A DNA stretch of 64,000 nucleotides from an uncultured Pirellulaceae bacterium (GCA_964394305.1 CAYMWL010000021.1:7196-71195), one strand, 5' to 3'; shown: positions 13,529-45,083, counted from the first letter of the stretch. Notes: generated by a model not told the origin, from the sequence alone. Made by a program: numbers and translations.

Positions 13529-13737
13529 GCGTTGGTTGCTAAATCAAGGGAGAGTGCCGAGTCGCCTATTGTACTTCTTGCCGCCGAAAAGGTTGCCCGA
13601 CAAGTGAGCCGAGGGCCTAGGAAGTTCTGCGAGTTGATGGTTCATCAACTCGCAGCGTTGCCTTGGCTCACGTGGCGGGCTAACTTCGTGCGCGTCTTCC
13701 GCCCTTTACTGTGCTCAATCCAATCCAAAAGCAATTC

Positions 13738-14154
13738 ATGAAAACCGCGCTACGCTTCATTTTGGCAATCATCGCCGGCTTGTTCGTATTGTTCGTACTA
13801 CTCGTGGCTGTCGAATTATTCAGCGCCGTGGTGCATCCGGTTCCTGCTGACTTCGGTCATACCGAGAAGGAAGTGATTGAGCACGTCGCGCGCTATCCGA
13901 CATGGGTCTTAGCAGTTGCCGCGCCCATGTGGGCGGCGGCCGCGTTTGCCAGCGTTTGGACGGCGCGACACATTGGCAACATCTACGCAGCGGCGATTGT
14001 GGGCCTGCTGCTGCTCGCAGCGCTGGTTTGCAATCTCTCGATGCTGCCTTATCCGCTTTGGTTCAAGGCGGTCTGTTTGCTACTCATTCCTCTGGCGGTG
14101 CTTGCGGGTAGTCGGCTTGGGAAGAGCACTGTCGCTGCCAATACTGCAAATTAA
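13738..14154 (+). CDS. Small hypothetical integral membrane protein
   Basis: About 4 hydrophobic segments; ends NLSMLPYPLWF. ATG at 13738 preferred. Confidence 0.65.
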   Translation: MKTALRFILAIIAGLFVLFVLLVAVELFSAVVHPVPADFGHTEKEVIEHVARYPTWVLAVAAPMWAAAAFASVWTARHIGNIYAAAIVGLLLLAALVCNLSMLPYPLWFKAVCLLLIPLAVLAGSRLGKSTVAANTAN

Positions 14155-14176
14155 ACCTTGGGAGTGCACGTTCAAA

Positions 14177-15193
14177 CTACTCGCGCGGCGCCGCAGCCTT
14201 TTGCAAGCGATCCCAAATCGCCGCATCGTGATTTTGCTTGTCGCGCTCGTGCACGACAAGCAATACCGCGTAGCCCGCATCATCGGCGGCCCGCAATGCA
14301 ATATAAAGTCGCTGCGCTCGAACCACGGGATCGGCAGACAATTTAAACCAATGAGCTTGATGCACATTGGCCGCTTTCGCGACGAGCGGATCGCAGATTA
14401 CGGCGAACCGCTGGCCGGCTTCTTCGCATTGCCTCATTGTTTTCGGCAGTTCGATAGGTTCGATGATCTGCACTTGAGCCTGCGGCGCATAATGGCTTTG
14501 CAAGCGGCCCGAAGCTCGCGTGGCACTGAGCAGCGGATCGCCCAAGTATTCGCCGATGACTGCTTGCATTTGCTCAACGCTGATCGCCCCCGGTCGCAGC
14601 AGGACGGCTTGCTCGCCGGTCAAATCGACGATGGTTGATTCCAGGCCGACTTGCGACGGCCCGCCGTCGAGGATCAGGTCCACACGATCGCCCAATTCCT
14701 GCCGCACGTGCGCTGCCAGTGTCGGGCTGAGTCGGCCGAAGCGATTCGCCGAAGGCGCCGCAATGCCGCGACCAAATTCTTTGAGCAACTGCAACGCGAC
14801 GGGATGATTTGGTACCCGCAGCCCCACGGTTTCCTGCCCGCCAGTCACGACATCGAGCGCTTTCGGGCTCCGTTTCAAAATCATGGTCAGCGGACCGGGC
14901 CAATAACATTCGGCAAGCCGCAATGCGCATTTGGGAATGTTGTACGACCAAGCGTGCATGTCCTGGGCTTCGGCGAGGTGGACAATTACTGGGTGGTCAG
15001 CAGGCCGTCCCTTGGCAGCAAAAATACGGCGGACCGCCGCTTCATTTTCGGCGTCGGCCCCCAATCCATAAACGGTCTCGGTGGGAAACGCCACCAGGCC
15101 GCCTCCGCGTAAAATCTTCGCTGCCGCCGCGATTTGCTCGGCAGAGGGGGCCATTGGCGAAGTGGGCAGCGGCGAATTCGGGGTGGAGTCCAC
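14177..15193 (-). CDS. sua5: L-threonylcarbamoyladenylate synthase (Sua5 type)
   Basis: VAFPTETVYGLGA; KGRP.DHPVIVH; WPGPLT; APSANRFG; GLEST; Sua5 C-terminal domain (SHYAP, RLQKAA). Confidence 0.95.
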   Translation of the reverse strand: MDSTPNSPLPTSPMAPSAEQIAAAAKILRGGGLVAFPTETVYGLGADAENEAAVRRIFAAKGRPADHPVIVHLAEAQDMHAWSYNIPKCALRLAECYWPGPLTMILKRSPKALDVVTGGQETVGLRVPNHPVALQLLKEFGRGIAAPSANRFGRLSPTLAAHVRQELGDRVDLILDGGPSQVGLESTIVDLTGEQAVLLRPGAISVEQMQAVIGEYLGDPLLSATRASGRLQSHYAPQAQVQIIEPIELPKTMRQCEEAGQRFAVICDPLVAKAANVHQAHWFKLSADPVVRAQRLYIALRAADDAGYAVLLVVHERDKQNHDAAIWDRLQKAAAPRE

Positions 15194-15381
15194 GCGAGTT
15201 AGTCAACCTCAAGTAGTGGCTGGATTTAGGTTTCGCACGATTCGTGTTGTCCTCGGCACTGGCGCGCGATAGAATTCGCGCGACTGGTCCTACCATTTAT
15301 CTGGATTACCTGACCCGCAATTTCTACCCCATCGTTGTACGATGCGGCCGAATTCAGCGGGTAAGGGGCGAGGAATCTCGA

Positions 15382-17493
15382 ATGCGACTGCTTTCTGGTG
15401 ACACGACGTTCCAAGCATTTCGTCCGCTTGGTCTGCTGCTTGGCTTAACCGTGCTGGGGGCTTCGTTCGGCAAACCGGCAGTGTTAGCCCAAGCGCCGGC
15501 GACGGTGGCCAAAGCCCCCGTGGCCGCTGCACTGGTGGCCCCGCGGACTACCGACCGTCAGATTACCAAAGCCGTGACGATGCTCGTAGGTGGGCAACAC
15601 CTCTCGAAGCACAAGTTGGATGACGAAATCTCGCAACGAGCTCTCGAGCAGTTCGCCAAGAAGCTCGACGCTATGAAGTTCTACTTCTACCAGTCCGACA
15701 TGGACGAATTCGCCAAGAGTCGCAACGACCTCGACGACATGGTCGGCGCCGGCGATATCTCGTTCGCATACACCGTGTTCAACGTGTTTTTGAAGCGGAT
15801 CGACGAACGGTTGGTCACGGTTGATGAATTGCTCAAGGAAAACCTCGACTTCACGATCGACGAAACGCTGATCACCGATCCCGACAAGTTGACCTATGCC
15901 AAGACTCCCGGCGAGGCCAAGGATCGTTGGCGGAAGCGGATCAAGTATGATTTGCTCACCTTGAAGAACGACAAGACTCTCAAAGGGGAAGATCCCAAGG
16001 CCCGCCTCAAGCGGCGTTATGCCAACTTTGCTCGCCGCATGCATCAGACTGATGCCGACGAGTTGCTGGAAATGTTTCTGACGTCGGTGACTGGTTCATA
16101 CGATCCGCACACCACGTTCATGTCCCCCAGCTCACTGGAAAACTTCCGCATTCTGATGACGCTGAACCTCGACGGCATCGGCGCTCAGTTGGAAGATCGC
16201 GACGGTTACACTGTGCTCAACAAGTTGATCCCCGGCGGTGCTGCCGAGAAAAGCGGCCAATTGAAGGCCGAAGATCGCATCGTCAGCGTTGGGCAGGGCG
16301 ACACCGGCGAAATGGTCGATGTCGTCGAGATGAAATTGAACGATGTCGTTTCCAAGATTCGCGGCAAAGCCGGCACCGTGGTCCGCCTGGGTGTAATTCC
16401 CGCTGCGGGTGGCGAAACAAAGATTGTTCGCATCGTCCGCGCCAAGATCGAACTCAAAGACAGCGAAGCCCGTGGCGTGATCTTTGAAGAAGGAAAGAAG
16501 CAAGACGGTTCGCCGTTCAAGATTGGTGTGATCGATCTCCCGAGCTTCTACATGGATATGGAAGGCGCTCGCGAGGGGCTCGCCGATTTCAAGAGCTCAA
16601 CCCGCGACGTGAAGAAGTTGCTCGACGATTTCAAGAGCAAGGGTGTCGATGTGGTGATGCTGGATCTTCGGCGTAACGGCGGTGGCAGCTTGACCGAAGC
16701 CATCAGCCTGACTGGCCTGTTCATTGACGAAGGCCCGGTAGTGCAAGTGAAGGACCCGAACGGCCGCGTGCAGATCTATGACGACATGGATGCTGGCGTG
16801 TATTGGAAGGGACCGCTTGTCGTGCTGGAAAGCAAGTTCAGCGCTTCGGCCAGCGAAATTCTTGCCGGTGCCATTCAGGATTATCAGCGCGGTTTGATCA
16901 TTGGTGACTCGACCTCGCACGGCAAAGGCACGGTGCAAAGCCTGCTCGATCTGGGCGAAACAATGTTCCGCGTCGGCAATCCGCCGAACCTCGGCGCTTT
17001 GAAGCTCACCATGCAGCAGTTCTATCGCCCCAACGGCGAGAGCACGCAACGTCGCGGTGTGCTGGCCGATGTGGTGTTGCCGTCGATCACCGATCACATG
17101 GACGTCAGCGAAGCTGATCTCGATCATGCGATTGCGTTCGACAAGATCCCGTCGGCCAAGTTCGACAAACTCGATCAGGTCAACCCAGGCCTGGTGAATC
17201 GCCTGAAGGCCGAATCGGCCGCGCGGCGTGAAAAATCGGAAGACTTCAACAAGCTGCAAAGCAACATCACGAAGTACATCGAGCAGAAGACGAAGAAAGA
17301 GATCCCGCTGAACGAAGCTAAGTTCATGGCTCGTCGTGCCGAACTCGATTCGGACAAGGAAGATCAAAAGATCGACGAGAAGCTGAACGATTCGTCGAAG
17401 GTGGTCGACCGCGACTTCTACTTCAACGAGTGCATCGGCATCACGCTCGATTACCTCCGCTCGCTGGGCAAGGACAAAGTTGCCGTGAAGTAA
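15382..17493 (+). CDS. prc: Carboxy-terminal processing (tail-specific) protease
   Basis: YDPHTTFMSP; GIGAQL; PDZ domain; DLRRNGGGSLTEA; catalytic SASASEI and HGKGTVQ. Start 15382 preferred over 15244. Confidence 0.93.
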   Translation: MRLLSGDTTFQAFRPLGLLLGLTVLGASFGKPAVLAQAPATVAKAPVAAALVAPRTTDRQITKAVTMLVGGQHLSKHKLDDEISQRALEQFAKKLDAMKFYFYQSDMDEFAKSRNDLDDMVGAGDISFAYTVFNVFLKRIDERLVTVDELLKENLDFTIDETLITDPDKLTYAKTPGEAKDRWRKRIKYDLLTLKNDKTLKGEDPKARLKRRYANFARRMHQTDADELLEMFLTSVTGSYDPHTTFMSPSSLENFRILMTLNLDGIGAQLEDRDGYTVLNKLIPGGAAEKSGQLKAEDRIVSVGQGDTGEMVDVVEMKLNDVVSKIRGKAGTVVRLGVIPAAGGETKIVRIVRAKIELKDSEARGVIFEEGKKQDGSPFKIGVIDLPSFYMDMEGAREGLADFKSSTRDVKKLLDDFKSKGVDVVMLDLRRNGGGSLTEAISLTGLFIDEGPVVQVKDPNGRVQIYDDMDAGVYWKGPLVVLESKFSASASEILAGAIQDYQRGLIIGDSTSHGKGTVQSLLDLGETMFRVGNPPNLGALKLTMQQFYRPNGESTQRRGVLADVVLPSITDHMDVSEADLDHAIAFDKIPSAKFDKLDQVNPGLVNRLKAESAARREKSEDFNKLQSNITKYIEQKTKKEIPLNEAKFMARRAELDSDKEDQKIDEKLNDSSKVVDRDFYFNECIGITLDYLRSLGKDKVAVK

Positions 17494-17544
17494 TTTCCGC
17501 TGCGAGTCATACGCAGCCGTTGTGGCTGTGTCAGCTACAACCTG

Positions 17545-17588
17545 GCCCCGGTGAGCTCAACGCATCTCGCCGGGGCTTTGTGTTTCGT
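17545..17588 (+). terminator. Rho-independent terminator after prc
   Basis: GCCCCGGTGAG...CTCGCCGGGGC stem followed by TTTGTGTTT. Confidence 0.75.
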
Positions 17589-17759
17589 TAGAACGTTCCT
17601 GCGGAACTTGAAAACACCTTAAGCATTTCGGCAAACGTGCTGCATTCGGCTTCCGGCCAGCACCTTGGCCAAAACGCCTCCGAGACCTAAAATCGCGGGA
17701 TTAGGCTGCAAAAACCGCAGCAGGCGACCTCCAGGCAGTAAGTACGGAAATAGACAACC

Positions 17760-19088
17760 ATGGCCGATGCAAAAAAATCCACCACCAGCCTTTCGGCGCC
17801 CACCAAGCAAGAGTCGCAGTTCAAACGGGTCGGCATTCTGTTCGCCGGCGGCCCGGCTCCCGCCGCAAATGCGGTGATTTCGACGGCCGCCAATTCCTTT
17901 TTGCGAAACGGTACCGAAGTCTACGGCATTCTGTATGGCTATTCAGGGTTGATTGAATACACGCCGGAAAAACCACTGGAAGAAGAAAAGCACTTTCGCA
18001 AACTCACGCCGCAGCACTTGAAGCGGAGTCGCAATTCACAAGGCATCTTGATTGGCACTGCGCGAAGCAATCCCGGCAAGAATATCTCCTCGCCGGCACA
18101 CTTGCATGATCCGCAGTTGAGCGCGCCGTTGCGTCGCGTCTATGAAGGCCTGTGCTCCCTCGGCATCGACGCGCTGATCTCAATTGGCGGCGACGACACG
18201 CTGAAGACGGCCAACAAGTTCAAGATGTATCAGGATACCTTGCCGGCCGGCTCGAAGAAGATTCCGGTGGTGCACCTGCCCAAGACCATCGATAACGACT
18301 ACATGGGCATTGACTTCACATTCGGCTATTTCACTGCCGTCGAAACGCTCGCGGCCGAAATTCGCAACCTGCTGGCCGACGCCGAAGCCTCGAAGTCGTA
18401 CTTCCTAACCGAGACGATGGGCCGCAGCGCCGGTTGGCTTAGTTATGGCGCCGCGATCGCCGGCGAGGCCAGCCTCGTCGTCAGCGTCGAAGACATTATC
18501 GGCAGTTATCGTTTGAAAGAAACCGTCGTCAATCCGAAGACGAATGAGTCCGAAGTTCGCGACATCATGGATGTCGATCGAGTCGTCGCTCGCATCGTCA
18601 AAACGATGATCGCCCGCGAAGAAGAGGGTAAACAATTTGGCGTGATCGTGATGGCCGAAGGGCTGGCGGAGTTGCTGCCACAAAAGTACTTGGAAGGTAT
18701 TCCACGCGACGATCACGGCCACATCTCGATCTCGCACGTCAATCTCGGCCGCATGTTCTCGAAGCTGGTCACCGAAGCTTTCAAAAAGCAAACAGGCCGC
18801 AGCCGGAAGATCACCGGCTTACAGCTCGGGTACGAGTCGCGCTGCGCCCGGCCACACGCGTTCGACGTGATGCTCGGCAGCCAACTGGGCGTCGGCGCCT
18901 ATCGCGCCCTAGTCGAAGAAAAGCTCAACGGCGTCATGGTTTCGGTCGTGGGTCAACTTCAACTGCACTACGTGCCGTTCGAGAAGTTGATCGATAAGGA
19001 AACGCTGGTGACTGTCGTGCGCTACATTGAGACGAGCAGCGATTTTCATCGACTGGCGCGGTTTCTAGAAACGTATGTTGATGAGTAG
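17760..19088 (+). CDS. pfp: 6-phosphofructokinase, PPi-dependent type
   Basis: GGPAPAAN; GGDDT and PKTIDND (Asp/Lys pair typical of PPi-PFK); ETMGRSAGW; GYESR. Confidence 0.88.
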   Translation: MADAKKSTTSLSAPTKQESQFKRVGILFAGGPAPAANAVISTAANSFLRNGTEVYGILYGYSGLIEYTPEKPLEEEKHFRKLTPQHLKRSRNSQGILIGTARSNPGKNISSPAHLHDPQLSAPLRRVYEGLCSLGIDALISIGGDDTLKTANKFKMYQDTLPAGSKKIPVVHLPKTIDNDYMGIDFTFGYFTAVETLAAEIRNLLADAEASKSYFLTETMGRSAGWLSYGAAIAGEASLVVSVEDIIGSYRLKETVVNPKTNESEVRDIMDVDRVVARIVKTMIAREEEGKQFGVIVMAEGLAELLPQKYLEGIPRDDHGHISISHVNLGRMFSKLVTEAFKKQTGRSRKITGLQLGYESRCARPHAFDVMLGSQLGVGAYRALVEEKLNGVMVSVVGQLQLHYVPFEKLIDKETLVTVVRYIETSSDFHRLARFLETYVDE

Positions 19089-34535: not shown

Positions 34536-37500
34536 ATGACGGCAACTTTATCTGTCACAGCAACAGCGGCCGAAAACCTTCGGCAGCTGCCCGATGCGCT
34601 TCGGCGTTATGAGGGCTTTGCCGAAGCGACAGCGGCTTTGACCAAGGGTCAACCCGCCACGTTCGACGGAGTCTGGGGATCAAGCTGCGCACTGCTTGCG
34701 GCCTCGCTTGCGCGAGCTGGCAATCGCCCACTGCTGATTGCCACCGCGCACGACCGCGAAGCTGATGATCTGGTCGCTGACCTGCCGCTCTTTGACGCTC
34801 CACACGCAGAAATTTTTCCGGCCTGGGATCCTGACTCGGAAGAGCGCGGCCTGCGCGACGAGAATTACGGCGAACGGATTCGGCTGCTGAAAAAACTGGC
34901 TCTGCATGCCGATGCAAAAGATCCGCCACTCTTCGCAGCCAGCATCGGCGCGCTGATGCAACCCGTGCCGAGTGCCGAGCTGATCCGCGGTTCGACGCGC
35001 ACGATGCGCCGCGGCGAAAGGATCGATATCGATGCGCTCCTCAAGTGGTTCGTCGAAAGTGGCTTTCACCCGACGAGCGCCGTTGAACTGCCGGGCGAGT
35101 TTTCGCACCGCGGCGGCATTCTCGATATCTATGCGCCCGACTGGCTTGAACCCGTTCGCCTGGAACTCTTCGACGACGAAATCGAATCGCTCCGCTCTTT
35201 CGATGTGGCAACGCAGCGCAGTTTGGAAGTGCTGGAATTCATCGAAGTCACCGTGCTGCCTAAAGATCAGCCGTTCACCGCACATCTCGCCGATCACTTT
35301 CCTGCAAATGCGTGGGCGCTGCTCGTTGAGCCGCAACAGTTGAGCGACGAGGCAAAGAACGTCCTCACGCGAGCGGCGGACACGGCGGTGTTTCATTCCG
35401 TGCAAGCGGTACTGGCCAGCGTGAGTCGGCTTGGTGTCGCGACGGCGGCTCATCTTTCGCCCGGCACCTATGGCGCGAATTGCCACCTGCCGATTGAATC
35501 GGTCGAGCGGTTCAGCGGCGATCTGCAGCGAGTGCGCGATGAGTTGGATCACGTCGCGGTCAACAACAACGTCTATTTGATTGTTGCGACCGATGCGGAA
35601 ACCGAACGCCTCCGCGAGTTGCTCCGCGAAACAAAGTTGATGGCCACGGGCCGGCTGCATTTCGTCGTCGGCAGTTTGCGCGAAGGGTTTCGCCTGCCGC
35701 GTGATGAGGCGCTGATCATCACCGGCGGCGAGTTGTTTCATCGTGGTGAACTGCGGCGAATTCCGCGGCGGCATCTCGGCAAGGCAATCGACAGCTTTCT
35801 CGATCTCCGTGATGGCGATCTGGTCGTGCATCTCGCGCATGGCATTGGTCGCTATCGCGGCCTGAAGCAGATCAGCAAAAATGGCCAGGCCGAAGAGCAT
35901 CTGGAAATCGAGTTCGACGGCGGCACACGCATTTATGTGCCGGCGATCAAAATCGACCTCGTGCAGAAATACGTCGGCGGCACGAAGACGCGGCCGACGC
36001 TCGCCAAGATCGGCGGCAAGACCTGGATCAAGCAAAAAGAGGCTGCCGAAGAAGCCGTCAAAGACCTCGCGGTCGAAATGCTCGAAGTGCAGGCCATGCG
36101 CAGCAGCCGGCCCGGCATTTCGTTCACCGTCGACAGTGAATGGCAACGCGAGTTCGACGCGTCGTTTCCGTATCGCGAAACCGTCGATCAGCTCAGTGCG
36201 ATCCGTGCAATTAAGGGGGACATGCAAAAGCCGCGGCCCATGGACCGCCTCCTCTGCGGCGACGTCGGTTTCGGCAAAACCGAAGTCGCCATGCGGGCTG
36301 CGTTCAAGGCCGTCGATAACGGCTATCAAGTCGCGGTGCTCGTGCCAACGACGATCCTCTGCGAACAACACTACCACAGTTTCAGCGAGCGGATGTCCGA
36401 GTTCCCGTTCGACATCGGCAAGCTCAGCCGGTTTTGCACGGCGCAAGAAACGCGCGAGACAATTAAGGGAATCAAAAGCGGCAAGGTCGACATCGTCATC
36501 GGCACGCACCGCATCGCTTCCAAAGACATCGAGTTCCACAACCTGGGCTTGGTGATCATCGACGAAGAGCAACGCTTCGGCGTCGACGTTAAAGAGCGAT
36601 TGAAATTGCTCCGTGCGACGGTGGACGTGCTCACACTCAGTGCAACGCCGATTCCGCGCACGCTGCACATGTCGCTCGTCGGCGTGCGCGATATTTCGAA
36701 TCTCGAATCGCCGCCAGAAGATCGCGTCGCGGTGGAAACGCGCGTCACGCGCTGGGACAACGATCTGATCAAGCATGCGATCAATCGCGAATTGGCCCGT
36801 GGCGGTCAGGCTTATTTCGTGCACAACCGTGTGAACGATATCGAGCAAATCGTCACTCGCATCAACAGCATCGTGCCCGAGGCCCGCATTCGCATTGGCC
36901 ATGCGCAGATGGCCGACGACGAACTCGAACAAGTGATGATCGACTTCGTCGCACACAAGTTCGACATTCTGGTTGCGACGACGATTGTCGAAAGCGGCCT
37001 CGATATTCCCAATGCCAATACGATTTTTATCGACGAGGCAGATCGCTACGGCCTCGCCGATTTGCATCAGCTTCGCGGCCGCGTGGGCCGGTACAAACAT
37101 CGGGCTTACTGTTATTTGCTGACCGACCCCAACAAGCACATCACGCCGAATGCTTCGCGCCGCTTGCGGGCGATCGAGGAGTTCAGCGAAATGGGGGCCG
37201 GCTTCGCGATCTCAATGCGCGATCTGGAAATTCGCGGCGCCGGCAACTTGCTCGGCACCCAGCAGAGCGGGCACATCGCGACGGTCGGCTACGAGCTCTA
37301 TTGCCAGCTGCTGGAAAATGCGGTGAGAGCGCTGCAGAACGCCGCGCCGCGGCTGAAGCTCGATGTCGATATCAATCTTCCCGGCGAAGCCTATCTGCCT
37401 GACGAATACATTCCCGATATCCGTTTGAAAATTGACCTCTATCGCCGACTGACGCGGATCAATACTTACCAAGAGCTGGCTGATCTGCGGGCTGAATTTG

Positions 37501-37790
37501 TCGACCGCTTCGGCCCGCCGCCGCGGCCCGTCGAACGGCTGATGGAAATCATCGAGCTGCGTATGGACGCTGCCTTGTGGTTCATTTCGGCGATTTTTCG
37601 CGAAGATAAGTTTCTTGTCTTTCAGTATCGCGATCGCTCCCGCATCGAACAGTTGGCCCGGCAACACAAAGGGAAATTGCGGGTTGTCGACGATAAATCG
37701 GCCTATCTGCCGTTGCCGGCGCAGAATCTCGAGGCCGACCAAATGTTTGCGTTGGTGAAATCCGTCCTGGCAGGCTCGCTCGCGAAGTAG
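34536..37790 (+). CDS. mfd: Transcription-repair coupling factor
   Basis: UvrB-like N-terminus; CarD/RID domain (HGIGRY); DRLLCGDVGFGKTEVA; DEEQRFG; LSATPIPRTL; QLRGRVGR; TRCF C-terminus. Confidence 0.98.
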   Translation: MTATLSVTATAAENLRQLPDALRRYEGFAEATAALTKGQPATFDGVWGSSCALLAASLARAGNRPLLIATAHDREADDLVADLPLFDAPHAEIFPAWDPDSEERGLRDENYGERIRLLKKLALHADAKDPPLFAASIGALMQPVPSAELIRGSTRTMRRGERIDIDALLKWFVESGFHPTSAVELPGEFSHRGGILDIYAPDWLEPVRLELFDDEIESLRSFDVATQRSLEVLEFIEVTVLPKDQPFTAHLADHFPANAWALLVEPQQLSDEAKNVLTRAADTAVFHSVQAVLASVSRLGVATAAHLSPGTYGANCHLPIESVERFSGDLQRVRDELDHVAVNNNVYLIVATDAETERLRELLRETKLMATGRLHFVVGSLREGFRLPRDEALIITGGELFHRGELRRIPRRHLGKAIDSFLDLRDGDLVVHLAHGIGRYRGLKQISKNGQAEEHLEIEFDGGTRIYVPAIKIDLVQKYVGGTKTRPTLAKIGGKTWIKQKEAAEEAVKDLAVEMLEVQAMRSSRPGISFTVDSEWQREFDASFPYRETVDQLSAIRAIKGDMQKPRPMDRLLCGDVGFGKTEVAMRAAFKAVDNGYQVAVLVPTTILCEQHYHSFSERMSEFPFDIGKLSRFCTAQETRETIKGIKSGKVDIVIGTHRIASKDIEFHNLGLVIIDEEQRFGVDVKERLKLLRATVDVLTLSATPIPRTLHMSLVGVRDISNLESPPEDRVAVETRVTRWDNDLIKHAINRELARGGQAYFVHNRVNDIEQIVTRINSIVPEARIRIGHAQMADDELEQVMIDFVAHKFDILVATTIVESGLDIPNANTIFIDEADRYGLADLHQLRGRVGRYKHRAYCYLLTDPNKHITPNASRRLRAIEEFSEMGAGFAISMRDLEIRGAGNLLGTQQSGHIATVGYELYCQLLENAVRALQNAAPRLKLDVDINLPGEAYLPDEYIPDIRLKIDLYRRLTRINTYQELADLRAEFVDRFGPPPRPVERLMEIIELRMDAALWFISAIFREDKFLVFQYRDRSRIEQLARQHKGKLRVVDDKSAYLPLPAQNLEADQMFALVKSVLAGSLAK

Positions 37791-37910
37791 CCCAAGATTG
37801 CATTCACGCGAGTTCACTTGGCTCGCAGAATCAGCCATACTAGTTTCTGATTGCCCGCGTCGCCCGCTCATCGATCCGTTTCTACTATGAACAATCTTTG
37901 GTGCCTCACG

Positions 37911-39491
37911 ATGACAAAACGTCGCTGCCGGCAGGCGGCTGTCGATCGCACGTTGGTGGTGATCTTAGGTTCGCTTGTCGTGCTCGTGTTCCTTGTCGTG
38001 ACGCTGTTGCGGAATAAGCCCGGTGTCAAACCGCCGGGAAATCAAGCCGACGCGGCGAAGCAGGTTCAGCCGCTCGTCGTATATTGCGCCGCCAGCAACA
38101 AGAGCGTGATCGAAGCAATTCGCCGCGACTATGAACGCGAATTTCAAGTGCCGCTGGAGTTGCAATATGGTGCTTCGCAAACCTTGCTGGCTTCGTTGTC
38201 GGTAACCGGCACCGGTGACTTGTATCTGCCGGCGGACGACAGTTTTTTGATTGCGGCGCGCGAGAAGCAATTGATTGATGACGAGTATCAGCTCGCAACA
38301 ATGCAGGCCGTCGTCGCCGTAGCCAAGGGGAATCCGCTGCAGATCAAAACCTGGGGCGACCTTCTCAAACCAGAAGTGCGTATCGCCCAAGCCAATCCTG
38401 AAGCAGCTGCCATCGGCAAACTGGTGAAAGCTTCGCTCGATGAGCGAAGTTTGTGGAAGCCTCTGCATGAGCACACGACAGTCTTCAAAACAACCATCAC
38501 GGAAGTAGCCAACGATCTGAAAGCCAATGCCGTCGACGCCGGCATTGTCTTCGACGCAGTGCTGCACGATTACAAAACACTGGAAGGTGTCACGCTGCCG
38601 GAACTTGAGCCCGTGAAAGCCAACGTGGCCATTTCCGTTCTCAAGTCGAGCACGCAAGCCCGCCAGGCGCGGCACTTTGCCCGTTATGTCTCGGCGAGTG
38701 ACAAGGGCTTGAAACATTATCGCGAGTTCGGCTTTCAGCCTGTCGCGAGTGAAAAATGGAGCGAGGCGCCCGAACTTACGCTCTATTCCGGCTCGATGCT
38801 CCGCCCCGCCATCGAGCAGACAATCACGGACTTCGAAAAAGAAGAAGGCGTACGCGTGACCCGCGTCTACAACGGCTGCGGCATTCTCGTCGCCCAGATG
38901 AAAGCCGGGCAAGTTCCGGATGCATACTTTGCCTGCGACCTCGAATTCATGAAGCAGGTAAAGGAAATTTTCCCGGCGTACGAAAGCATCTCGCAGAATG
39001 AACTCGTCATTCTGGTGAAAAAGGGAAACCCTGCCGGCATTCGAAATTTGAAAGACCTTTCGAAGGATGGCCTGCGTATCGGCATTGGACATGAAAAGCA
39101 ATGTGCGATGGGCTGGCTGACGCAGCGCACGTTTGACGAAGGGGGCGTGCGCGAATCGGTGATGAAAAACGTCGTCGTACAAACGCCGACCGGCGACATG
39201 TTGGTGAATCAAATGCGTTCCGGATCGCTCGACGCGGCGGTCGCCTATTTGAGCAATGCCGCCGGCGCTAAGGATGATCTTGATGCGATTCGCATTCAGG
39301 GCATTCCCTGTTCCATCGCCAGTCAACCTTTCGGCATCGCTAAGGATACGCCGCACAAGCAGCTCGCCGCACGGTTGCTGACGGCCATCAAGGCCAAGGA
39401 ATCGCAGGAGCGATTTACCAAAGAGGGATTCCGCTTGGCGGATGAGGAAGCCGAGAAACCTGATGACGCGAAGGCTACTCCGGATGAGTGA
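37911..39491 (+). CDS. modA: Molybdate/tungstate-type ABC substrate-binding protein with two tandem ModA-like domains
   Basis: N-terminal TM anchor. Domain 1: YCAAS, YGASQTL, ANPEAAAIG. Domain 2: YSGSML, YNGCGIL, QCAMG. Start may be 37887. Confidence 0.85.
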   Translation: MTKRRCRQAAVDRTLVVILGSLVVLVFLVVTLLRNKPGVKPPGNQADAAKQVQPLVVYCAASNKSVIEAIRRDYEREFQVPLELQYGASQTLLASLSVTGTGDLYLPADDSFLIAAREKQLIDDEYQLATMQAVVAVAKGNPLQIKTWGDLLKPEVRIAQANPEAAAIGKLVKASLDERSLWKPLHEHTTVFKTTITEVANDLKANAVDAGIVFDAVLHDYKTLEGVTLPELEPVKANVAISVLKSSTQARQARHFARYVSASDKGLKHYREFGFQPVASEKWSEAPELTLYSGSMLRPAIEQTITDFEKEEGVRVTRVYNGCGILVAQMKAGQVPDAYFACDLEFMKQVKEIFPAYESISQNELVILVKKGNPAGIRNLKDLSKDGLRIGIGHEKQCAMGWLTQRTFDEGGVRESVMKNVVVQTPTGDMLVNQMRSGSLDAAVAYLSNAAGAKDDLDAIRIQGIPCSIASQPFGIAKDTPHKQLAARLLTAIKAKESQERFTKEGFRLADEEAEKPDDAKATPDE

Positions 39492-40323
39492 AGTGCCGCC
39501 CGCGCAGCGACCGCATAAGGCAGGTTCCGATTGGCCGTTCATGATTGTCCTCAGTATTCTGGGTGGCAGTTATGTCCTGCTGATCGTCGCGCTGCTGATC
39601 GCCGATTTGGCTTACACTTCACCACGTCATTTTTCTGCCGCACTCGCTAAACCGGAAATTCAGTATGCGATCTGGCTCACCATGGTGAGTTGTTCGATTT
39701 CTGCATTGCTCTCGGTGTGGGTTGCGACTCCGCTGGGATATTTGCTCTCGCGATTTACCTTTCGTGGCCGCTGGTTGATTGACACCATCATTGACATCCC
39801 CGTCGTGCTGCCCCCGCTCGTGATTGGTCTCAGCTTGTTGATTTTGTTCCATCTGCCGGTGGGTGGCACGAACCTCGAGCGACAGATGCAGCGTCTGCTT
39901 GGTCTGCGCATTACGTACGCAGAACCTGCCGTCGTGCTCGCGCAATTTGCGGTTGCTTGTGCATTCGCCGTGCAAACGATGCGAGTTACGTTCGACCAGA
40001 TTGATACCCGTGCGGAACAAGTCGCGCTCACGCTCGGCTGTCGACGGAGCCAGGCGTTTTTCCAAGTCACAATGCCGCAGGCGTGGCGTGGCATGATCGC
40101 TGCGTTGACGATTGCCTGGGCTCGTTCGCTCGGCGAATTCGGCCCGATTCTCGTTTTTGCCGGCGCCACGCGCATGCGGACGGAGGTGCTCTCGACGACC
40201 GTGTTCCTGGAACTCAGCGTGGGCCAACTCGAAGCTGCGGTCGCGGTTTCGTTGCTCATGGTCGTCGCCTCGATGTTGGTGCTCGGCGTCGTGCGATTGC
40301 TCGGGACCAAGGTGACCCGATGA
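39484..40323 (+). CDS. modB: Molybdate ABC transporter permease
   Basis: DIPVVLPPLVIGLSLL; EQVALTLG; WARSLGEFGPILVFAG; start overlaps the modA stop. Confidence 0.9.
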   Translation: MSEVPPAQRPHKAGSDWPFMIVLSILGGSYVLLIVALLIADLAYTSPRHFSAALAKPEIQYAIWLTMVSCSISALLSVWVATPLGYLLSRFTFRGRWLIDTIIDIPVVLPPLVIGLSLLILFHLPVGGTNLERQMQRLLGLRITYAEPAVVLAQFAVACAFAVQTMRVTFDQIDTRAEQVALTLGCRRSQAFFQVTMPQAWRGMIAALTIAWARSLGEFGPILVFAGATRMRTEVLSTTVFLELSVGQLEAAVAVSLLMVVASMLVLGVVRLLGTKVTR

Positions 40324-40997
40324 TCGAACTGCAAAATCTTTCGCTTCGCGCCGGCGCGTTCTCGCTGTTGAATGTAGACTTGCTGATTCCTCAGGGAACG
40401 TACGCGGTGCTGATGGGCGGTACGGGACAGGGAAAGACTTCGCTGCTCGAGGTTATCTGCGGCTTGAAGCCAGTCGCCGCGGGAAAAGTCCGACTTGCCG
40501 GACAGGACGTCACGCATTGGAAACCCGCCGACCGCGGCATTGGCTATGTGCCGCAGGACCTGGCGCTCTTTCCGACGATTTCGGTTCGTGGCCATTTGGA
40601 ATTTGCGCTCAAGTTGCGGAACTGGTCGACTGCGGCAATGCGCGACCGCGTCGCTCACCTCGCCAGCGTGCTCAGCATCGAACATTTGCTCGATCGAGGC
40701 GTGCGGCATTTGAGCGGCGGCGAAGCGCAGCGTGTGGCGATCGGCCGCGCGATTTCTTTCGAGCCTGAAGTGCTGCTGATGGATGAACCACTCAACGCGC
40801 TGGATGAAACGACTCGCGATCGACTCTGCAATTTGTTACGGACCATTCATGCCCAAATCAAGTTGACGACGTTGCATATCACACATAGCCGCTCAGAAGC
40901 TCGACAAGTCGCTGATAAGTTCTACTTTCTCGTGGCTGGCAAGCTGCAAGAACGCCCCGTGTCTGAACTTGATGGACTCGCCAACCACTTTCACTGA
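40320..40997 (+). CDS. modC: ABC transporter ATP-binding protein (ModC-like, no TOBE domain)
   Basis: GGTGQGKTS; YVPQD; LSGGEAQR; LLMDEP; ITHS; ATGA overlap with modB. Not separately listed in the ORF track. Confidence 0.88.
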   Translation: MIELQNLSLRAGAFSLLNVDLLIPQGTYAVLMGGTGQGKTSLLEVICGLKPVAAGKVRLAGQDVTHWKPADRGIGYVPQDLALFPTISVRGHLEFALKLRNWSTAAMRDRVAHLASVLSIEHLLDRGVRHLSGGEAQRVAIGRAISFEPEVLLMDEPLNALDETTRDRLCNLLRTIHAQIKLTTLHITHSRSEARQVADKFYFLVAGKLQERPVSELDGLANHFH

Positions 40998-41007
40998 TTC
41001 CGTCCCC

Positions 41008-41289
41008 ATGAAACTGATCGTCAAATATTCCGCACAACTTCGCACGGCCTTGCAACGGGCCGAGGAGGTGATTGAACTGCCGCCGGCGAGCCGGCTGTCC
41101 GAACTGCTGCTGCATCTCGCCGAACGCCATGACTCCGGCCGGCCGCACTTGCTGAACGCCAAGGGAAACGTCCAAGCCAGTTTGCTCGTTGTGGTGAACG
41201 AAGCTGCAGTGGCGGCGAACGACGCAACCACGTGGCAACTCAACGAAGGCGATGTGGTCCTTTTATTGCCGCCAATCGCGGGAGGATAG
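41008..41289 (+). CDS. MoaD/ThiS family sulfur-carrier protein
   Basis: 93 aa, ubiquitin-like fold pattern; ends LNEGDVVLLLPPIAGG with C-terminal GG. Confidence 0.92.
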   Translation: MKLIVKYSAQLRTALQRAEEVIELPPASRLSELLLHLAERHDSGRPHLLNAKGNVQASLLVVVNEAAVAANDATTWQLNEGDVVLLLPPIAGG

Positions 41290-41295
41290 TGGGCC

Positions 41296-42048
41296 ATGAC
41301 AGAGCTGCCTCCACTAACTCCCGAAGAACGCCGTCGATACGAATGGCAACTTTGGGTCCCCGATTTCGGCGAAGCCGGCCAGCAGCGATTGAAAGCCGCG
41401 ACGGTTTTGGTTTCCCGTATCGGCGGCGTCGGTGGCACCGCCGCATTGCAACTCGCGGCGGCGGGAGTGGGCAGATTGATACTTGCCCACGGCGGCGAAC
41501 TGCGGCTCAACGATCTCAATCGCCAGTTGCTCATGACGACCGCGGGCATCGGCGTGCGACGAGTCGAACTCGCAACCGAGCGTTTGCGCGAACTCAATCC
41601 GCATGTCGAGATTGAAACCGTCGCCGAAAATTTCAGCGAAGCCAATGCGGCCGAACTCGTCAGTCGCTGCAATTTGATCATCAGCGCGGCGCCACTCTTT
41701 GCCGAACGAATGCTGATGAATCGCGAAGCGGTTCGCCAACGCAAGCCGCTCATCGACTGTGCGATGTACGAGCTGGAAGGTCGCCTGACGACGATCATCC
41801 CCGGCCAAACTCCCTGTCTCGCTTGCATGTATCCTGAGCCTCCGGTCAATTGGAATCGCGAATTCCCGGTATTCAGCGCGGTTTCATCAACTGTGGGATC
41901 GATGGCAGGCATGGAAGCAATCAAGTTGCTGGCGAGCTTGGGTGAACCGCTGGCGGGGCGACTCCTCGTTTTCGATTTGCGCGACATGAGCTTTCGCAAG
42001 CTCTCGATCGCGCGCCGCGCTGACTGTGCCGTTTGCGGGGAACTGTAA
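41296..42048 (+). CDS. HesA/MoeB/ThiF family adenylyltransferase, HesA-like
   Basis: RYEWQLWVPDFGEAGQQRLK; GGVGG; ILAHGGELRLNDLNRQ; LTTIIPGQTPCLAC; CAVCG. Confidence 0.9.
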   Translation: MTELPPLTPEERRRYEWQLWVPDFGEAGQQRLKAATVLVSRIGGVGGTAALQLAAAGVGRLILAHGGELRLNDLNRQLLMTTAGIGVRRVELATERLRELNPHVEIETVAENFSEANAAELVSRCNLIISAAPLFAERMLMNREAVRQRKPLIDCAMYELEGRLTTIIPGQTPCLACMYPEPPVNWNREFPVFSAVSSTVGSMAGMEAIKLLASLGEPLAGRLLVFDLRDMSFRKLSIARRADCAVCGEL

Positions 42049-42059
42049 GGAATAGGGCG

Positions 42060-45000
42060 ATGACCAATAAATTGCTGCCGCTGTTGCTGTATCTGTTCGT
42101 TGGGACCGCGACCGCCGCCGATTGGCCGATGTATCGCGGCGATGCGGAGCGAACTGGCTACACGGCTGAACCGCTCCCTGCGAAGCTGTCGCTGGTGTGG
42201 ACTTATCGTCCCACGCATCCGCCGACTCCGGCGTGGCCACGAGACGATCGCATGCTCTTTGATCGTGCCAGCGATGTGGTCATCAGCGGCGGCGTGGCAA
42301 TCTTCGGCAGTTCCAGCGATAGCCAGGTGATCGCGCTCGATGCTGCAACCGGCGCGCATCGGTGGACTTTTTTTGCCGATGCTCCCGTCCGATTCGCGGC
42401 GGCCATCTGGCACGACAAAGCGTTCATCGTGAGCGACGACGGCATGTTGTATTGCCTCGCGGTTGCTGACGGCAAATTGTTGAACCAATGGCGCGGCGGT
42501 CCCACCGATGACTTGATCCTCGGCAACGGCCGGATGGTTTCGCGCTGGCCCGCGCGCGGTGGACCTGTCATTCGCGATGACATCGTCTATTTCGCCGCAG
42601 GCATCTGGCAGTCGGAGAGAATCTATCTGACTGCGATCAACGCGGAGACCGGCAAACAGATTTGGCAGAATGACAAGGCGGGGCAGATCTACATGCCGCA
42701 GCCGCACGGCGGCGCGATGGCCAACAGCGGTGTGTCGGCGCAGGGCTATCTGGTGGCGAATGACAACGAGTTGATCGTGCCCACCGGCCGTGCAGTCCCT
42801 GCCGGTTTCGCGCGGCGGAGTGGTGAGTTTCTTTACTATCACTTGCAAGCCAACGGACACATCGGCGGCACACAGACGGTCGTGGCCGATGACACGTTCT
42901 ACAACGGTGGCTCGGCGTTTCGAAACGAAAATGGCGCGCTCGTGGCCAAGTTGGGAGTTGGATCGATCGCGGCAACTCCAGCCGGCACGTTGTTTGGCAC
43001 GAAGAAAGATGTGCGGCTCGTCAAATTGATCGAGAAGACTGCGCCCGATCGCAAAGGGGTACCGACGAAAACAATGGACCACCAGGTGGAATGGTCCGTT
43101 GCTGATGTCGACGGCAGCGCGTCCCTCATTGTTGCTGGCCACGTCGTCGTCGCCGGAGGCAGCATTAGCGGAGGCAACGGCAAGGTGACAGCCATCGATG
43201 TGCAGTCGCAAAAAATACTCTGGTCCGCAGAAGTCGCGGGCATTCCGTATGGTTTGGCCGCAGCGAATGGCAAACTCTATGTCAGCACCGATCGCGGCGA
43301 AATTCATTGCTTTGCAACAGAAGCGAGTTCCAAACCAGCAGTTATTACTCTGCCGCAAACAAAGATCGTTGCGAATGCCCAAGCGACGAAGGCTGCGCAG
43401 GAGATCCTGCGGAAAACGAGCGTCACTGAAGGATTCTGCCTCGATCTCGATTGCGACGACGGCGAATTGGCCGTTGCCTTGGCTCAGCAATCGAAGTTGC
43501 AAATCTATGCCGTTCATTCCAGCGCTGAAGATGTCGCCGCGTTGCGAAAAAAGTTGGCCGCGGCCGGCTTGTACGGCACTCGCATCACTGTACATCAAGG
43601 CACCCGTGACAAGCTCCGCTACGGCAAGTACTTTGCGGACCTCGTGGTTTCCAGCCAATCGCTGAAGTCGGGACCAATCCCCTCGACGGCAGATAAGATT
43701 CCCTCGGCGCTTCGACCTGCTGGCGGGCAACTCTGCTCCGGCAAGGTTGGCAACATGGAAACGTTCCAACGCCCCGCCCTTGCTCGTGCGGGGAGTTGGA
43801 CGCATCAATACTCCGATCTCGGCAATAGCAGTTGCTCGACCGATGAGATTGTGAAAGGTGACTTGCGGGCCCTCTGGTTTCGCGATGTGGATCTCGAAAT
43901 GCCGCAACGGCATGGCCGCGGTCATGCGCCGCTGTTTCAAGACGGCCGAATGTTTGTCGAAGGAATGGGTGCCCTCCGCGCGGTCGATGGTTACAACGGC
44001 CGCAACTTGTGGGAGTTCCCGCTGCCGAACATTCAAGCTGCGTACAATGCCGACCATCTGTCGGGAACTTCGGTGACTGGCAGCAATTTCTGCGTGGCCG
44101 ACGGCAACGTGTATGTGCACGACAAGTTGCAATGTTACCGTCTCGATGCCGCAACTGGTCGCAAACTGGGGGAATTCAAGACGCCCGTCAATAAGGACCG
44201 CAAGCCTGGTTCGTGGGGCTATATCGCCAGCGACGGCAAGTTGCTGTTTGGCTCGGTCGCCAATCCGCAGCATGTTGCTCGCTTTGCTTGGAAGTTCGCC
44301 GATGTGAGCGAGTTGTGGGGCGAATCGGCGACGTTTTTCGCGCTCGATGCCAAGTCCGGCGAACTGCGCTGGAAATACGACGCCGAGGAATCGATCCGTC
44401 ACAATGCGATCACGATCGGCAACGGCCACGTTTATTTGATCGACCGCGCCATCGCCAAAGAAGACAAGCTGACAACGGTCGACAAGGCCGGTAAGTTGCC
44501 GGCCGTCGCGGCGGTGAAGCATTCGCCGGGACAGATCGTCGCGCTCGATATCAATACGGGAGAGATTGCTTGGAAAGGGGAACGCGATGCCTTCGGCACT
44601 GTTCTCTCGCTTAGTCCGCAGCACGACACGCTGCTGATGAGTTATCAATCGACGCGGTTCAAGTTGCCTTCGGAAGTCGGCGGCAAGTTGGCTGCCTATC
44701 GCGCAAGCACGGGCAAACCTCTGTGGCAAAAAGAAGCCAAGTACGTTACCCGTCCGCTGATTAACGATCGCACCATCTACGCCCAAGGAGGCTCTTGGGA
44801 TCTGATCACTGGCGAAGAAAAAGGCTTCACGTTGAACCGCTCGTACGGCTGCGGACAGTTCGCGGGCTCGAAGCACATGCTGCTGTTCCGTTCCGCAACA
44901 CTTGGCTATTTGGACCTGTCTCGCGGCTCGGGCGTCGAAAACTACGGTGGTATCCGCCCCGGCTGTTGGATCAACGCGCTTCCCGTCGGCGGCCTGGTGC

Positions 45001-45083
45001 TGGTGCCCGATGCCTCGGCGGGCTGTGCCTGCAGCTATCAGAATCGAAGTTGGATGGCGCTGTCGGGGACGGGGGATGAGTGA
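42060..45083 (+). CDS. Exported PQQ-binding-like beta-propeller protein with central methyltransferase-like domain
   Basis: Signal peptide + DWPMYRGD; Trp-docking repeats (ALDAATG..RW); LDLDCDDG insert; second propeller starting WTHQYSD; C-terminal YGCG, RPGCW, GCACSY. Confidence 0.85.
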   Translation: MTNKLLPLLLYLFVGTATAADWPMYRGDAERTGYTAEPLPAKLSLVWTYRPTHPPTPAWPRDDRMLFDRASDVVISGGVAIFGSSSDSQVIALDAATGAHRWTFFADAPVRFAAAIWHDKAFIVSDDGMLYCLAVADGKLLNQWRGGPTDDLILGNGRMVSRWPARGGPVIRDDIVYFAAGIWQSERIYLTAINAETGKQIWQNDKAGQIYMPQPHGGAMANSGVSAQGYLVANDNELIVPTGRAVPAGFARRSGEFLYYHLQANGHIGGTQTVVADDTFYNGGSAFRNENGALVAKLGVGSIAATPAGTLFGTKKDVRLVKLIEKTAPDRKGVPTKTMDHQVEWSVADVDGSASLIVAGHVVVAGGSISGGNGKVTAIDVQSQKILWSAEVAGIPYGLAAANGKLYVSTDRGEIHCFATEASSKPAVITLPQTKIVANAQATKAAQEILRKTSVTEGFCLDLDCDDGELAVALAQQSKLQIYAVHSSAEDVAALRKKLAAAGLYGTRITVHQGTRDKLRYGKYFADLVVSSQSLKSGPIPSTADKIPSALRPAGGQLCSGKVGNMETFQRPALARAGSWTHQYSDLGNSSCSTDEIVKGDLRALWFRDVDLEMPQRHGRGHAPLFQDGRMFVEGMGALRAVDGYNGRNLWEFPLPNIQAAYNADHLSGTSVTGSNFCVADGNVYVHDKLQCYRLDAATGRKLGEFKTPVNKDRKPGSWGYIASDGKLLFGSVANPQHVARFAWKFADVSELWGESATFFALDAKSGELRWKYDAEESIRHNAITIGNGHVYLIDRAIAKEDKLTTVDKAGKLPAVAAVKHSPGQIVALDINTGEIAWKGERDAFGTVLSLSPQHDTLLMSYQSTRFKLPSEVGGKLAAYRASTGKPLWQKEAKYVTRPLINDRTIYAQGGSWDLITGEEKGFTLNRSYGCGQFAGSKHMLLFRSATLGYLDLSRGSGVENYGGIRPGCWINALPVGGLVLVPDASAGCACSYQNRSWMALSGTGDE

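Follow-up and report, generated by a model that had tools for sequence, protein, structure and literature searches.

A pair of adjacent genes at 41008-42048 in a 64,000-nucleotide stretch of DNA from an uncultured Pirellulaceae bacterium (GCA_964394305.1, CAYMWL010000021.1:7196-71195; the whole stretch is called the window below) is the subject of this analysis. The first gene (41008..41289, plus strand) encodes a beta-grasp carrier protein of 93 amino acids (aa), the sequence of which ends in LLLPPIAGG, that is, with a C-terminal Pro-Ile-Ala-Gly-Gly, and the second (41296..42048, plus strand) encodes a HesA-like E1-fold protein of 250 aa without a rhodanese domain. A previous interpretation made from the sequence alone (the sequence-only reading) had treated this span, which takes in both genes, as a nif-type HesA with its own MoaD-like partner outside a nif cluster. 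The two genes belong to a run of six tightly packed plus-strand genes between the gene for Mfd (34536-37790) and a convergent gap. Upstream of them lie genes for a membrane-anchored, tandem (two-domain) ModA-type oxyanion-binding protein of 546 aa (37911..39491, in an open reading frame (ORF) that is open from 37851, so that the start is at 37851 or 37911), a ModB-type permease with a NifC-like clade nearest (39484..40323) and a 225-aa ABC ATPase that lacks a TOBE/Mop domain (40320..40997), and downstream lies a gene for an exported PQQ-type beta-propeller of about 1000 aa with an embedded methyltransferase-like domain (42060..45083; PQQ_2, 124 bits; Methyltransf_25, 27.8 bits). The successive junctions measure -8 (ModA/ModB), -4 (ModB/ATPase), +10 (ATPase/carrier), +6 (carrier/E1) and +11 nt (E1/propeller). 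Between 37400 and 45600 no sigma-70 promoter-like site was found and terminator-like sites did not exceed the shuffle expectation, a result that is uninformative on the limits of the operon.

The product of the 41296-42048 ORF contains GVGRLILAHGGELRLNDLNRQLLM and LTTIIPGQTPCLACMYPEPPVNWNREFPVF, exactly as quoted in the sequence-only reading, and matches the Pfam ThiF model (PF00899) with 169 bits. It lies under every curated cut-off for MoeB, ThiF, MoeZ and UbaA (195 against 449 for NF006444, 189 against 266 for NF004281, 153 against 377 for TIGR02355 and 158 against 450 for the UbaA model). The top NCBIfam names are those of MoeB models, and close homologues, the closest named one being that of Anatilimnocola aggregata (80% identity), are publicly annotated as "molybdopterin-synthase adenylyltransferase." The Anatilimnocola match marks the host as a planctomycete of the Pirellulales type. 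Identity to Escherichia coli MoeB is about 32%, and identity over the full length to the HesA of Calothrix NIES-22, encoded in the context nifEN-nifX-DUF269-nifW-hesA-hesB-fdxH, is 49%. An Anabaena HesA sequence served here only as a probe, which retrieved real proteins of 95% identity named HesA by their sources, the Calothrix protein among them. Two HesA signatures, (x)GG(D/E)LRLxDxNRQ and LTTIIPGxTPCLxC..PE, occur as AHGGELRLNDLNRQ and LTTIIPGQTPCLACMYPE in the window protein and as VRGGDLRLDDMNRQ and LTTIIPGVTPCLSCLFPE in the Calothrix protein.

In a 75-row tree, a superclade of 44 HesA-like rows is split from 31 canonical MoeB/ThiF/MoeZ rows with full support (ultrafast bootstrap (UFBoot)/SH-aLRT, 100/100), and the same split is seen in a 159-row tree, so that the window protein stands apart from ordinary MoeB and ThiF. 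Within the superclade it falls in a separate clade (100/97), whereas all the nif-cluster HesAs examined fall in another branch (99/91) that does not include it. Thus, the match to HesA noted earlier is sustained at the level of the superclade and the term "nif-type" is not: as judged from its sequence, the window protein is HesA-like without being nif-type, and it firmly belongs to a subfamily of the HesA branch that is both distinct and widespread and that we call W-type. Among the 17 cyanobacterial HesA loci in the 99/91 branch, NifX is encoded within 10 kb in 16, NifW in 15 and a carrier in none; a 69-aa TOBE/Mop (molbindin) gene lies downstream of hesA in 12 of them, as at L017:12367-12576, about 1.6 kb beyond the end of hesA and on the opposite strand. 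The branch also has genes of Anaeromyxobacteraceae, in the orders nifDK-EN-X-B-W-hesA and nifX-W-Z-B-U-hesA-nifS, and the HesAs of Paenibacillus and Frankia are placed in the HesA branch only through published identities (49% to Anabaena HesA and 26% to E. coli MoeB; PMC6361004). The notion that the branch is wholly nif-linked was rejected, as one member comes from a Thermodesulfovibrio metagenome-assembled genome (MAG) in which nif genes are present, but none of them within 10 kb of it. This gene (L114:9046-10741) directly follows a 297-aa radical-SAM gene, and its product has His at position 62 in MoeB numbering, keeps N70 and has Pro at the D130 position. In two small sister clades of HesA-like proteins (P0254 and P0394 types) the E1 gene is immediately followed by a ThiS-family gene. 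At two sister-clade loci (L132:8001-9965 and L133:4644-5729) the E1-fold protein has R38, H62 and Pro at the D130 position and keeps R14, the gene order is E1 and then the ThiS-family gene, and neither a Mod importer nor nif accompanies them; at L132 a PpoB2 (PF09948) gene follows the pair.

The placement of the locus outside a nif cluster is upheld at the level of the whole genome. The host assembly (7.96 Mb, 96% complete) has no match to PF00148 (NifD/K/E/N) and no NifH match above 32 bits, the cut-off being 394. PF00148 is likewise absent from 30 of 33 genomes with W-type genes, and PF00148 genes are present in all of four control genomes from the nif branch. The other three W-type genomes, MAGs of Gemmataceae, Pirellulales and Verrucomicrobiales (G301, G318 and G333, with loci L050, L079 and L111), carry four NifDKEN-type genes each, which in G301 lie on a different contig from the W-type gene; these may be candidate diazotrophic bacteria of the Planctomycetes-Verrucomicrobia-Chlamydiae group or binning artefacts.

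The nucleotide pocket of the W-type protein is rewired. In MoeB, R14 reportedly serves as an arginine finger in trans, D62 is said to contact the ribose and N70 the phosphates, assignments that go back to work by Lake et al. in 2001. A residue-by-residue alignment with E. coli MoeB (1JW9) shows that the canonical LLDFDTVSLSNLQRQ, which the sequence-only reading had rightly called missing, is replaced by ILAHGGELRLNDLNRQ in the window protein. The replacements are W17 for R14, R41 for G38, H65 for D62, G67 for D64, D73 for N70, R89 for K86 and P133 for D130, and the crossover-loop Cys position (C187) is taken by W186. Consequently, the six ATP/Mg-site residues R14, D62, N70, R73, K86 and D130 of MoeB appear as W, H, D, R, R and P: R73 alone is unchanged, K86 shows a conservative change (Arg), and the remaining four have been exchanged, as has the first Gly of the nucleotide loop. 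Retained are the GGxG loop, Arg76 and Gln77 (R73 and Q74 of MoeB), Arg138 (R135) and both CxxC zinc pairs, C174/C177 and C244/C247, which align with C172/C175 and C244/C247 of MoeB. The lost Asp130 belongs, with G41, R73 and K86, to a machinery conserved from MoeB to human UBA1, in which the Asp together with Mg2+ stabilises the transition state of adenylation (PMC12355090), and the same conserved Asp binds Mg2+ in MccB (PMC12596934). Adenylation of the carrier therefore cannot be assumed.

Is this pocket a dead one? Across 88 distinct W-type sequences from six phyla, the substituted positions (R14W, G38R, D62H, D64G, N70D, K86R and D130P) are 98-100% invariant against a mean top-residue frequency of 0.70, and for this reason the pocket fits a working site rather than decay; we infer that it may be a remodelled site still in use. 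The occurrence of N70D with the loss of D130, and of G38R with the loss of R14, looks as if the metal ligand and the arginine finger, respectively, had moved to new positions. Nif-cluster HesAs (of cyanobacteria, Paenibacillus, Frankia, Anaeromyxobacteraceae and others) are likewise single-domain proteins of the ThiF family (250-270 aa), and they share with the W-type the loss of D62, D64, N70 and D130 of MoeB, the changes D64G, N70D and K86R and the LTTIIPGxTPCLxC..PE motif. However, they keep R14 and G38, where the W-type has W and R, and have Arg rather than His at position 62 and His rather than Pro at position 130. The AlphaFold2 model of the window protein (pLDDT 94.4) superimposes on chain B of 1JW9 (1JW9_B) with a TM (template modelling) score of 0.93 and a root-mean-square deviation of 1.3 Å; the model and the fold search confirm the fold only, not the geometry of the pocket. 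In about 9% of W-type proteins (L037, L038, L040, L069, L076, L099, L104, L106 and L109) neither CxxC zinc pair is present and the chain stops short, at about 235-240 aa, with the rewired pocket complete.

W-type genes are widespread. In an even sample of Planctomycetota, 35 of 301 genomes have one, scoring 243 bits or more with 47-64% identity; the next-best matches are canonical E1s at no more than 185 bits. A scan of species-representative genomes gave 61 further loci, in records from Planctomycetota, Verrucomicrobiota, Kiritimatiellota, Bacteroidota (including the cultured Rapidithrix thailandica JCM 23209), Poribacteria and Acidobacteriota. All neighbouring ORFs were clustered, and the counts that follow refer to the 38 loci that have 5 kb or more on each side (full loci). 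Of these, 22 (about 58%) have a tandem ModA and a ModB, and in 21, which come from records of several phyla, ModB lies directly upstream in the same orientation; a propeller orthologue is present in 21, an adjacent Gly-Gly carrier in 18 (about 47%), an FtsX/MacB-type permease together with a dedicated ATPase in 11, an anchored protein of no known kind (x17) in eight and a thioredoxin/glutaredoxin (Trx/Grx)-like anchored protein recognised by Pfam in four. At least one of importer, propeller and carrier accompanies the gene in 29 of the 38. In the planctomycete loci with 1.5-kb flanks, ModB is upstream in 15 of 29 and the carrier is directly upstream of the E1 gene in 20 of 29. Since a Gly-Gly carrier directly precedes the orthologous E1 gene in so many loci of both sets, the pairing is not due to chance. 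In organisms that have no nitrogenase, operon structure firmly connects the W-type subfamily with a Mod-like importer and, about half the time, with a carrier of its own. By comparison, neither the carrier nor the importer occurs within 8-10 kb of the nif-cluster HesAs examined. A larger cluster is found in several phyla, in which the tandem ModA-ModB-ATPase-carrier-E1 series is followed by an FtsX/MacB permease and ATPase, a PQQ propeller of 1000-1500 aa and an anchored x34 (Trx/Grx-like) or x17 protein, exemplified by Rapidithrix thailandica (L070:6393-18513) and seen also at L068, L082, L095, L052, L064 and L078.

The carrier passes the Pfam ThiS model (43.9 bits, cut-off 22.5) and ends in Gly-Gly 6 nt upstream of the E1 gene, which bears out the proposal that the E1-fold protein has a MoaD-like partner of its own. 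It falls below the MoaD cut-offs (46 against 49.5 for the archaeal-type TIGR01687 and 28 against 66 for TIGR01682), and its best profile matches, TIGR01687 and the UbaA-SAMP1-type NF041918 (43 bits), are both below cut-off; its nearest relative of solved structure is Pyrococcus MoaD (1VJK, E 3.8e-7). The window carrier and 44 others from orthologous loci can be aligned as a single family with a length of about 92 aa, the Gly-Gly motif in all 45 and the C-terminal pattern (P/A/S)(I/M/V)(S/A)GG. Four carriers extend beyond the Gly-Gly, as GGSK (L029), GGCGGDERSVGLE (L033), GG with about 19 further aa (L071) and GGSS (L076); these would require C-terminal trimming, and no JAMM protease was seen nearby. 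As for known pairs of this kind, MoeB-MoaD of E. coli (1JW9/1JWA/1JWB) has the same fold, the zinc CxxC pairs, the R73/Q74 equivalents and a beta-grasp partner ending in Gly-Gly, but the window carrier is not beside MoaE, as the MoaE of this genome (at C110) adjoins a different MoaD. ThiF-ThiS, a best structural match (TM 0.92), follows the same gene-pair logic, but no thiamine genes lie near the window pair, the crossover-loop Cys is lost as noted above, and the genome has a separate ThiS-like gene at C85. Besides the MoaD next to MoaE, the genome has two further ThiS-family genes. Compared with UbaA-SAMP1, there is no sign of protein conjugation, and no JAMM protease is encoded near the window pair.

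The link to molybdenum, also suggested in the sequence-only reading, gains support from synteny. The binding protein matches SBP_bac_11 in two stretches (254 bits) and ModA (TIGR01256) as a whole (100 against 62.5), the single halves lying below the cut-off (57.7 and 47.3), and these two halves are the sole ModA-family matches in the genome. The permease scores 194 against 210 with TIGR01581 and 146 against 182.6 with the modB model TIGR02141, and the ATPase matches PF00005 with 107 bits and, below all cut-offs, the NCBIfam models for WtpC (202), sulfate (182) and ModC (161 against 285). The set is thus of the molybdate/tungstate/sulfate ABC family, like ModABC, WtpABC and NifC-type importers, but differs from them in the anchored tandem of two ModA domains, the ATPase without TOBE and the sub-threshold permease and ATPase. 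The genome has three MoeA genes and at least five enzymes with molybdenum-bis(pyranopterin guanine dinucleotide), so that the molybdenum cofactor (Moco) is in use; a canonical MoaD directly beside MoaE (C110); and a canonical 390-aa E1 with all the active-site residues of MoeB (C2). A reading of the importer as a sulfate/thiosulfate system was rejected as the leading one, as a complete Sbp-CysT-CysW-CysA set scores above its cut-offs at C48. With the only ModA family of a Moco-using genome in this operon, and the canonical MoaD, MoaE and E1 and the sulfate system elsewhere, the operon most probably encodes the Mo/W importer of the cell and the E1/carrier pair is most probably an extra one.

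What might this extra pair do? The explanation that we rank first, and hold as a tentative preference, is that the carrier is activated in the rewired site and that its sulfur is fed to imported Mo or W, the 93-aa protein being a dedicated beta-grasp partner of the W-type protein. A dimer of the E1-fold protein would bind nucleotide in the conserved pocket, where Asp73 (the Asn70 position of MoeB) would assume the metal binding of the lost Asp130, Arg41 (the Gly38 position) would substitute in cis for the lost Arg14 in trans and His65 would substitute for the ribose-binding Asp62. It would also bind the Gly-Gly tail of the carrier and activate it; the tail would be converted to a thiocarboxylate by way of a persulfide donor encoded elsewhere, and the thiocarboxylate sulfur would be applied to the freshly imported Mo (or W) oxyanion. 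Such a Mo-S hand-over would make the scarce metal available for cofactor assembly, for Moco enzymes here and for the iron-molybdenum cofactor (FeMo-co) in the nif-linked cousins. This explanation is preferred because the fold is intact and the pocket invariant, because the carrier is adjacent and the importer directly upstream at the frequencies given above, because a ThiS-family gene also immediately follows the E1 gene in the two sister clades outside nif clusters, and because the importer is the sole ModA-family system of a genome that has its genuine Sbp-CysTWA elsewhere. It also agrees with the sole genetics available for HesA: high molybdate, or cystine, rescues a hesA mutant of Paenibacillus, for which E. 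coli moeB is not a full substitute, and a link of HesA to Mo and S supply was already proposed (Liu et al., 2019; PMC6361004). The Mo donor for FeMo-co, NifQ, offers a parallel in that excess molybdate or cystine suppresses nifQ as well as hesA mutants, but the two proteins have no sequence relation and nifQ of Klebsiella oxytoca fails to complement hesA (PMC6361004). No later biochemistry of HesA was found in the collection of papers searched.

Several observations weigh against this explanation. The Asp for Mg2+ and the transition state is Pro, Arg14, Asp62 and Asn70 are replaced as well, and the crossover-loop Cys position is Trp. The permease and ATPase lie below every equivalog cut-off, which leaves the choice of oxyanion by the importer uncertain; no Moco riboswitch or other Rfam family was found upstream of the window operon or of four other W-type loci; and co-occurrence with the MoeA/Moco pathway is only weakly enriched (33 of 35 W-type genomes against 208 of 266 others) among genomes too related for this to carry weight. 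No rhodanese or cysteine desulfurase is encoded in the conserved neighbourhood of W-type loci. In addition, about half of the loci have no adjacent carrier, and a profile of the carrier, calibrated at 109-122 bits in six control genomes, found one elsewhere in only three of 16 carrier-less genomes (70-105 bits), while in the other 13 no match exceeded 42 bits; the carrier must then be either dispensable or replaceable by the housekeeping MoaD. Of the proposal that HesA proteins are Mo-linked sulfur-carrier activators independent of nitrogenase, the Mo link and the independence hold, while the role of activator is an assumption, given the replaced residues, the carrier-less loci and the nif-cluster HesAs without a carrier.

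If the carrier is dispensable, the rewired pocket could act directly on the imported oxyanion, either binding or nucleotide-activating molybdate or gating or receiving the metal from the ABC importer, with the carrier as a lineage-specific accessory. This is the second-ranked explanation, and we consider it possible though unlikely. The importer link is at least as frequent as the carrier link (22 against 18 of the full loci); at many loci, mostly of Verrucomicrobiota, the ATPase gene abuts the E1 gene (-14 to +55 nt) without space for a carrier, and the 13 genomes just mentioned have none of this type; the nif-cluster HesAs also do without one; and the invariant Arg41 brings a positive charge to the phosphate/anion site. 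On the other hand, the carrier, where present, is translationally coupled and invariant in its Gly-Gly end, the two other HesA-like clades outside nif clusters keep their adjacent ThiS-family gene, and the housekeeping MoaD could serve carrier-less genomes. Moreover, we know of no precedent for an E1 fold that acts on an inorganic anion.

The propeller gene brings in another explanation: the exported propeller might contain a metal-sulfur or Cys-rich centre that matures in the periplasm with sulfur relayed by the pair, in the manner of NosDFY/NosL for NosZ and with a MacB-type pump as the export route. The presence of the propeller gene in 21 of the full loci, sometimes as propeller-carrier-E1 without the importer, and the recurrence of FtsX/MacB permease and ATPase genes and of anchored Trx/Grx-like proteins nearby agree with such a relay. 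It would, however, leave unexplained both the Mod-like importer and the need of nitrogenase for nif-cluster HesA at low Mo (PMC6361004), and the window cluster has no MacB pump; a search of its genome gave only distant FtsX homologues and no homologue of the Trx-like x34. We regard the relay as improbable.

Ranked after it, and improbable too, is a non-catalytic pseudo-E1 that has lost adenylation and serves as a scaffold or adaptor, binding the carrier or another partner, for example in a pair with the canonical E1, as the inactive subunit does in the heterodimeric E1s of eukaryotes. The loss of Asp130, Arg14, Asp62 and Asn70 and of the first Gly of the nucleotide loop is what such a protein might show, but the replacement residues are invariant across six phyla, unlike those of a decayed site, the phosphate contacts of MoeB (Arg76, Gln77, Arg89 and the GGxG loop in window numbering) are all kept, and Arg14, the very residue that an inactive partner would donate, is Trp. 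Finally, an ordinary redundant MoeB-MoaD pair for molybdopterin synthesis, to which the MoeB names, the MoaD-type matches of the carrier and the public annotation point, is very improbable in view of the scores below all MoeB/ThiF cut-offs, the full-support split from the 31 canonical sequences, the single ATP-site residue kept unchanged, the canonical MoaD-MoaE and E1 elsewhere in the genome and the incomplete substitution of Paenibacillus hesA by E. coli moeB (PMC6361004).

The sole functional clue to the biochemical role of HesA, a question that dates from 1990, is the rescue of the Paenibacillus mutant by excess molybdate or cystine. According to the present analysis, a large family of HesA-like proteins exists outside diazotrophs, with genes that share operons with a molybdate-type importer and, in many cases, with a Gly-Gly carrier of their own; the pocket of these proteins is invariant and non-canonical, without the Asp that is regarded as indispensable throughout E1-like enzymes. 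As the pairing recurs in six phyla and the host has no nitrogenase, HesA-type proteins can be studied without nitrogenase, in the cultured Rapidithrix thailandica JCM 23209 and Anatilimnocola aggregata and with reference to Gimesia and Rubripirellula MAGs; the carrier as a defined candidate substrate and the specific residues are further handles. Caution is called for in the routine annotation of W-type genes as "molybdopterin-synthase adenylyltransferase." A broader and more doubtful idea than the carrier activation that we prefer, though not an implausible one, is that the HesA family as a whole might be a separate class of E1-fold proteins with migrated catalytic residues (the Asp now at 70 instead of 130, the Arg finger at 38 in cis instead of 14 in trans), which would convert imported molybdate to a sulfur-ligated or activated form for cofactor assembly, using nucleotide and, where present, the carrier thiocarboxylate. 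If so, it would supply a missing "Mo processing" step between ModABC and the synthesis of both Moco and FeMo-co, and would explain why diazotrophs without NifQ need HesA.

A second piece of the module lies outside the window: a full-length paralogue of the propeller (33% identity) is encoded in the same genome at G000:C25:13449-16655, and directly 3' of it, within the locus at 13449-18213 (L137), is a homologue of x17 with 47% identity to that of L081.

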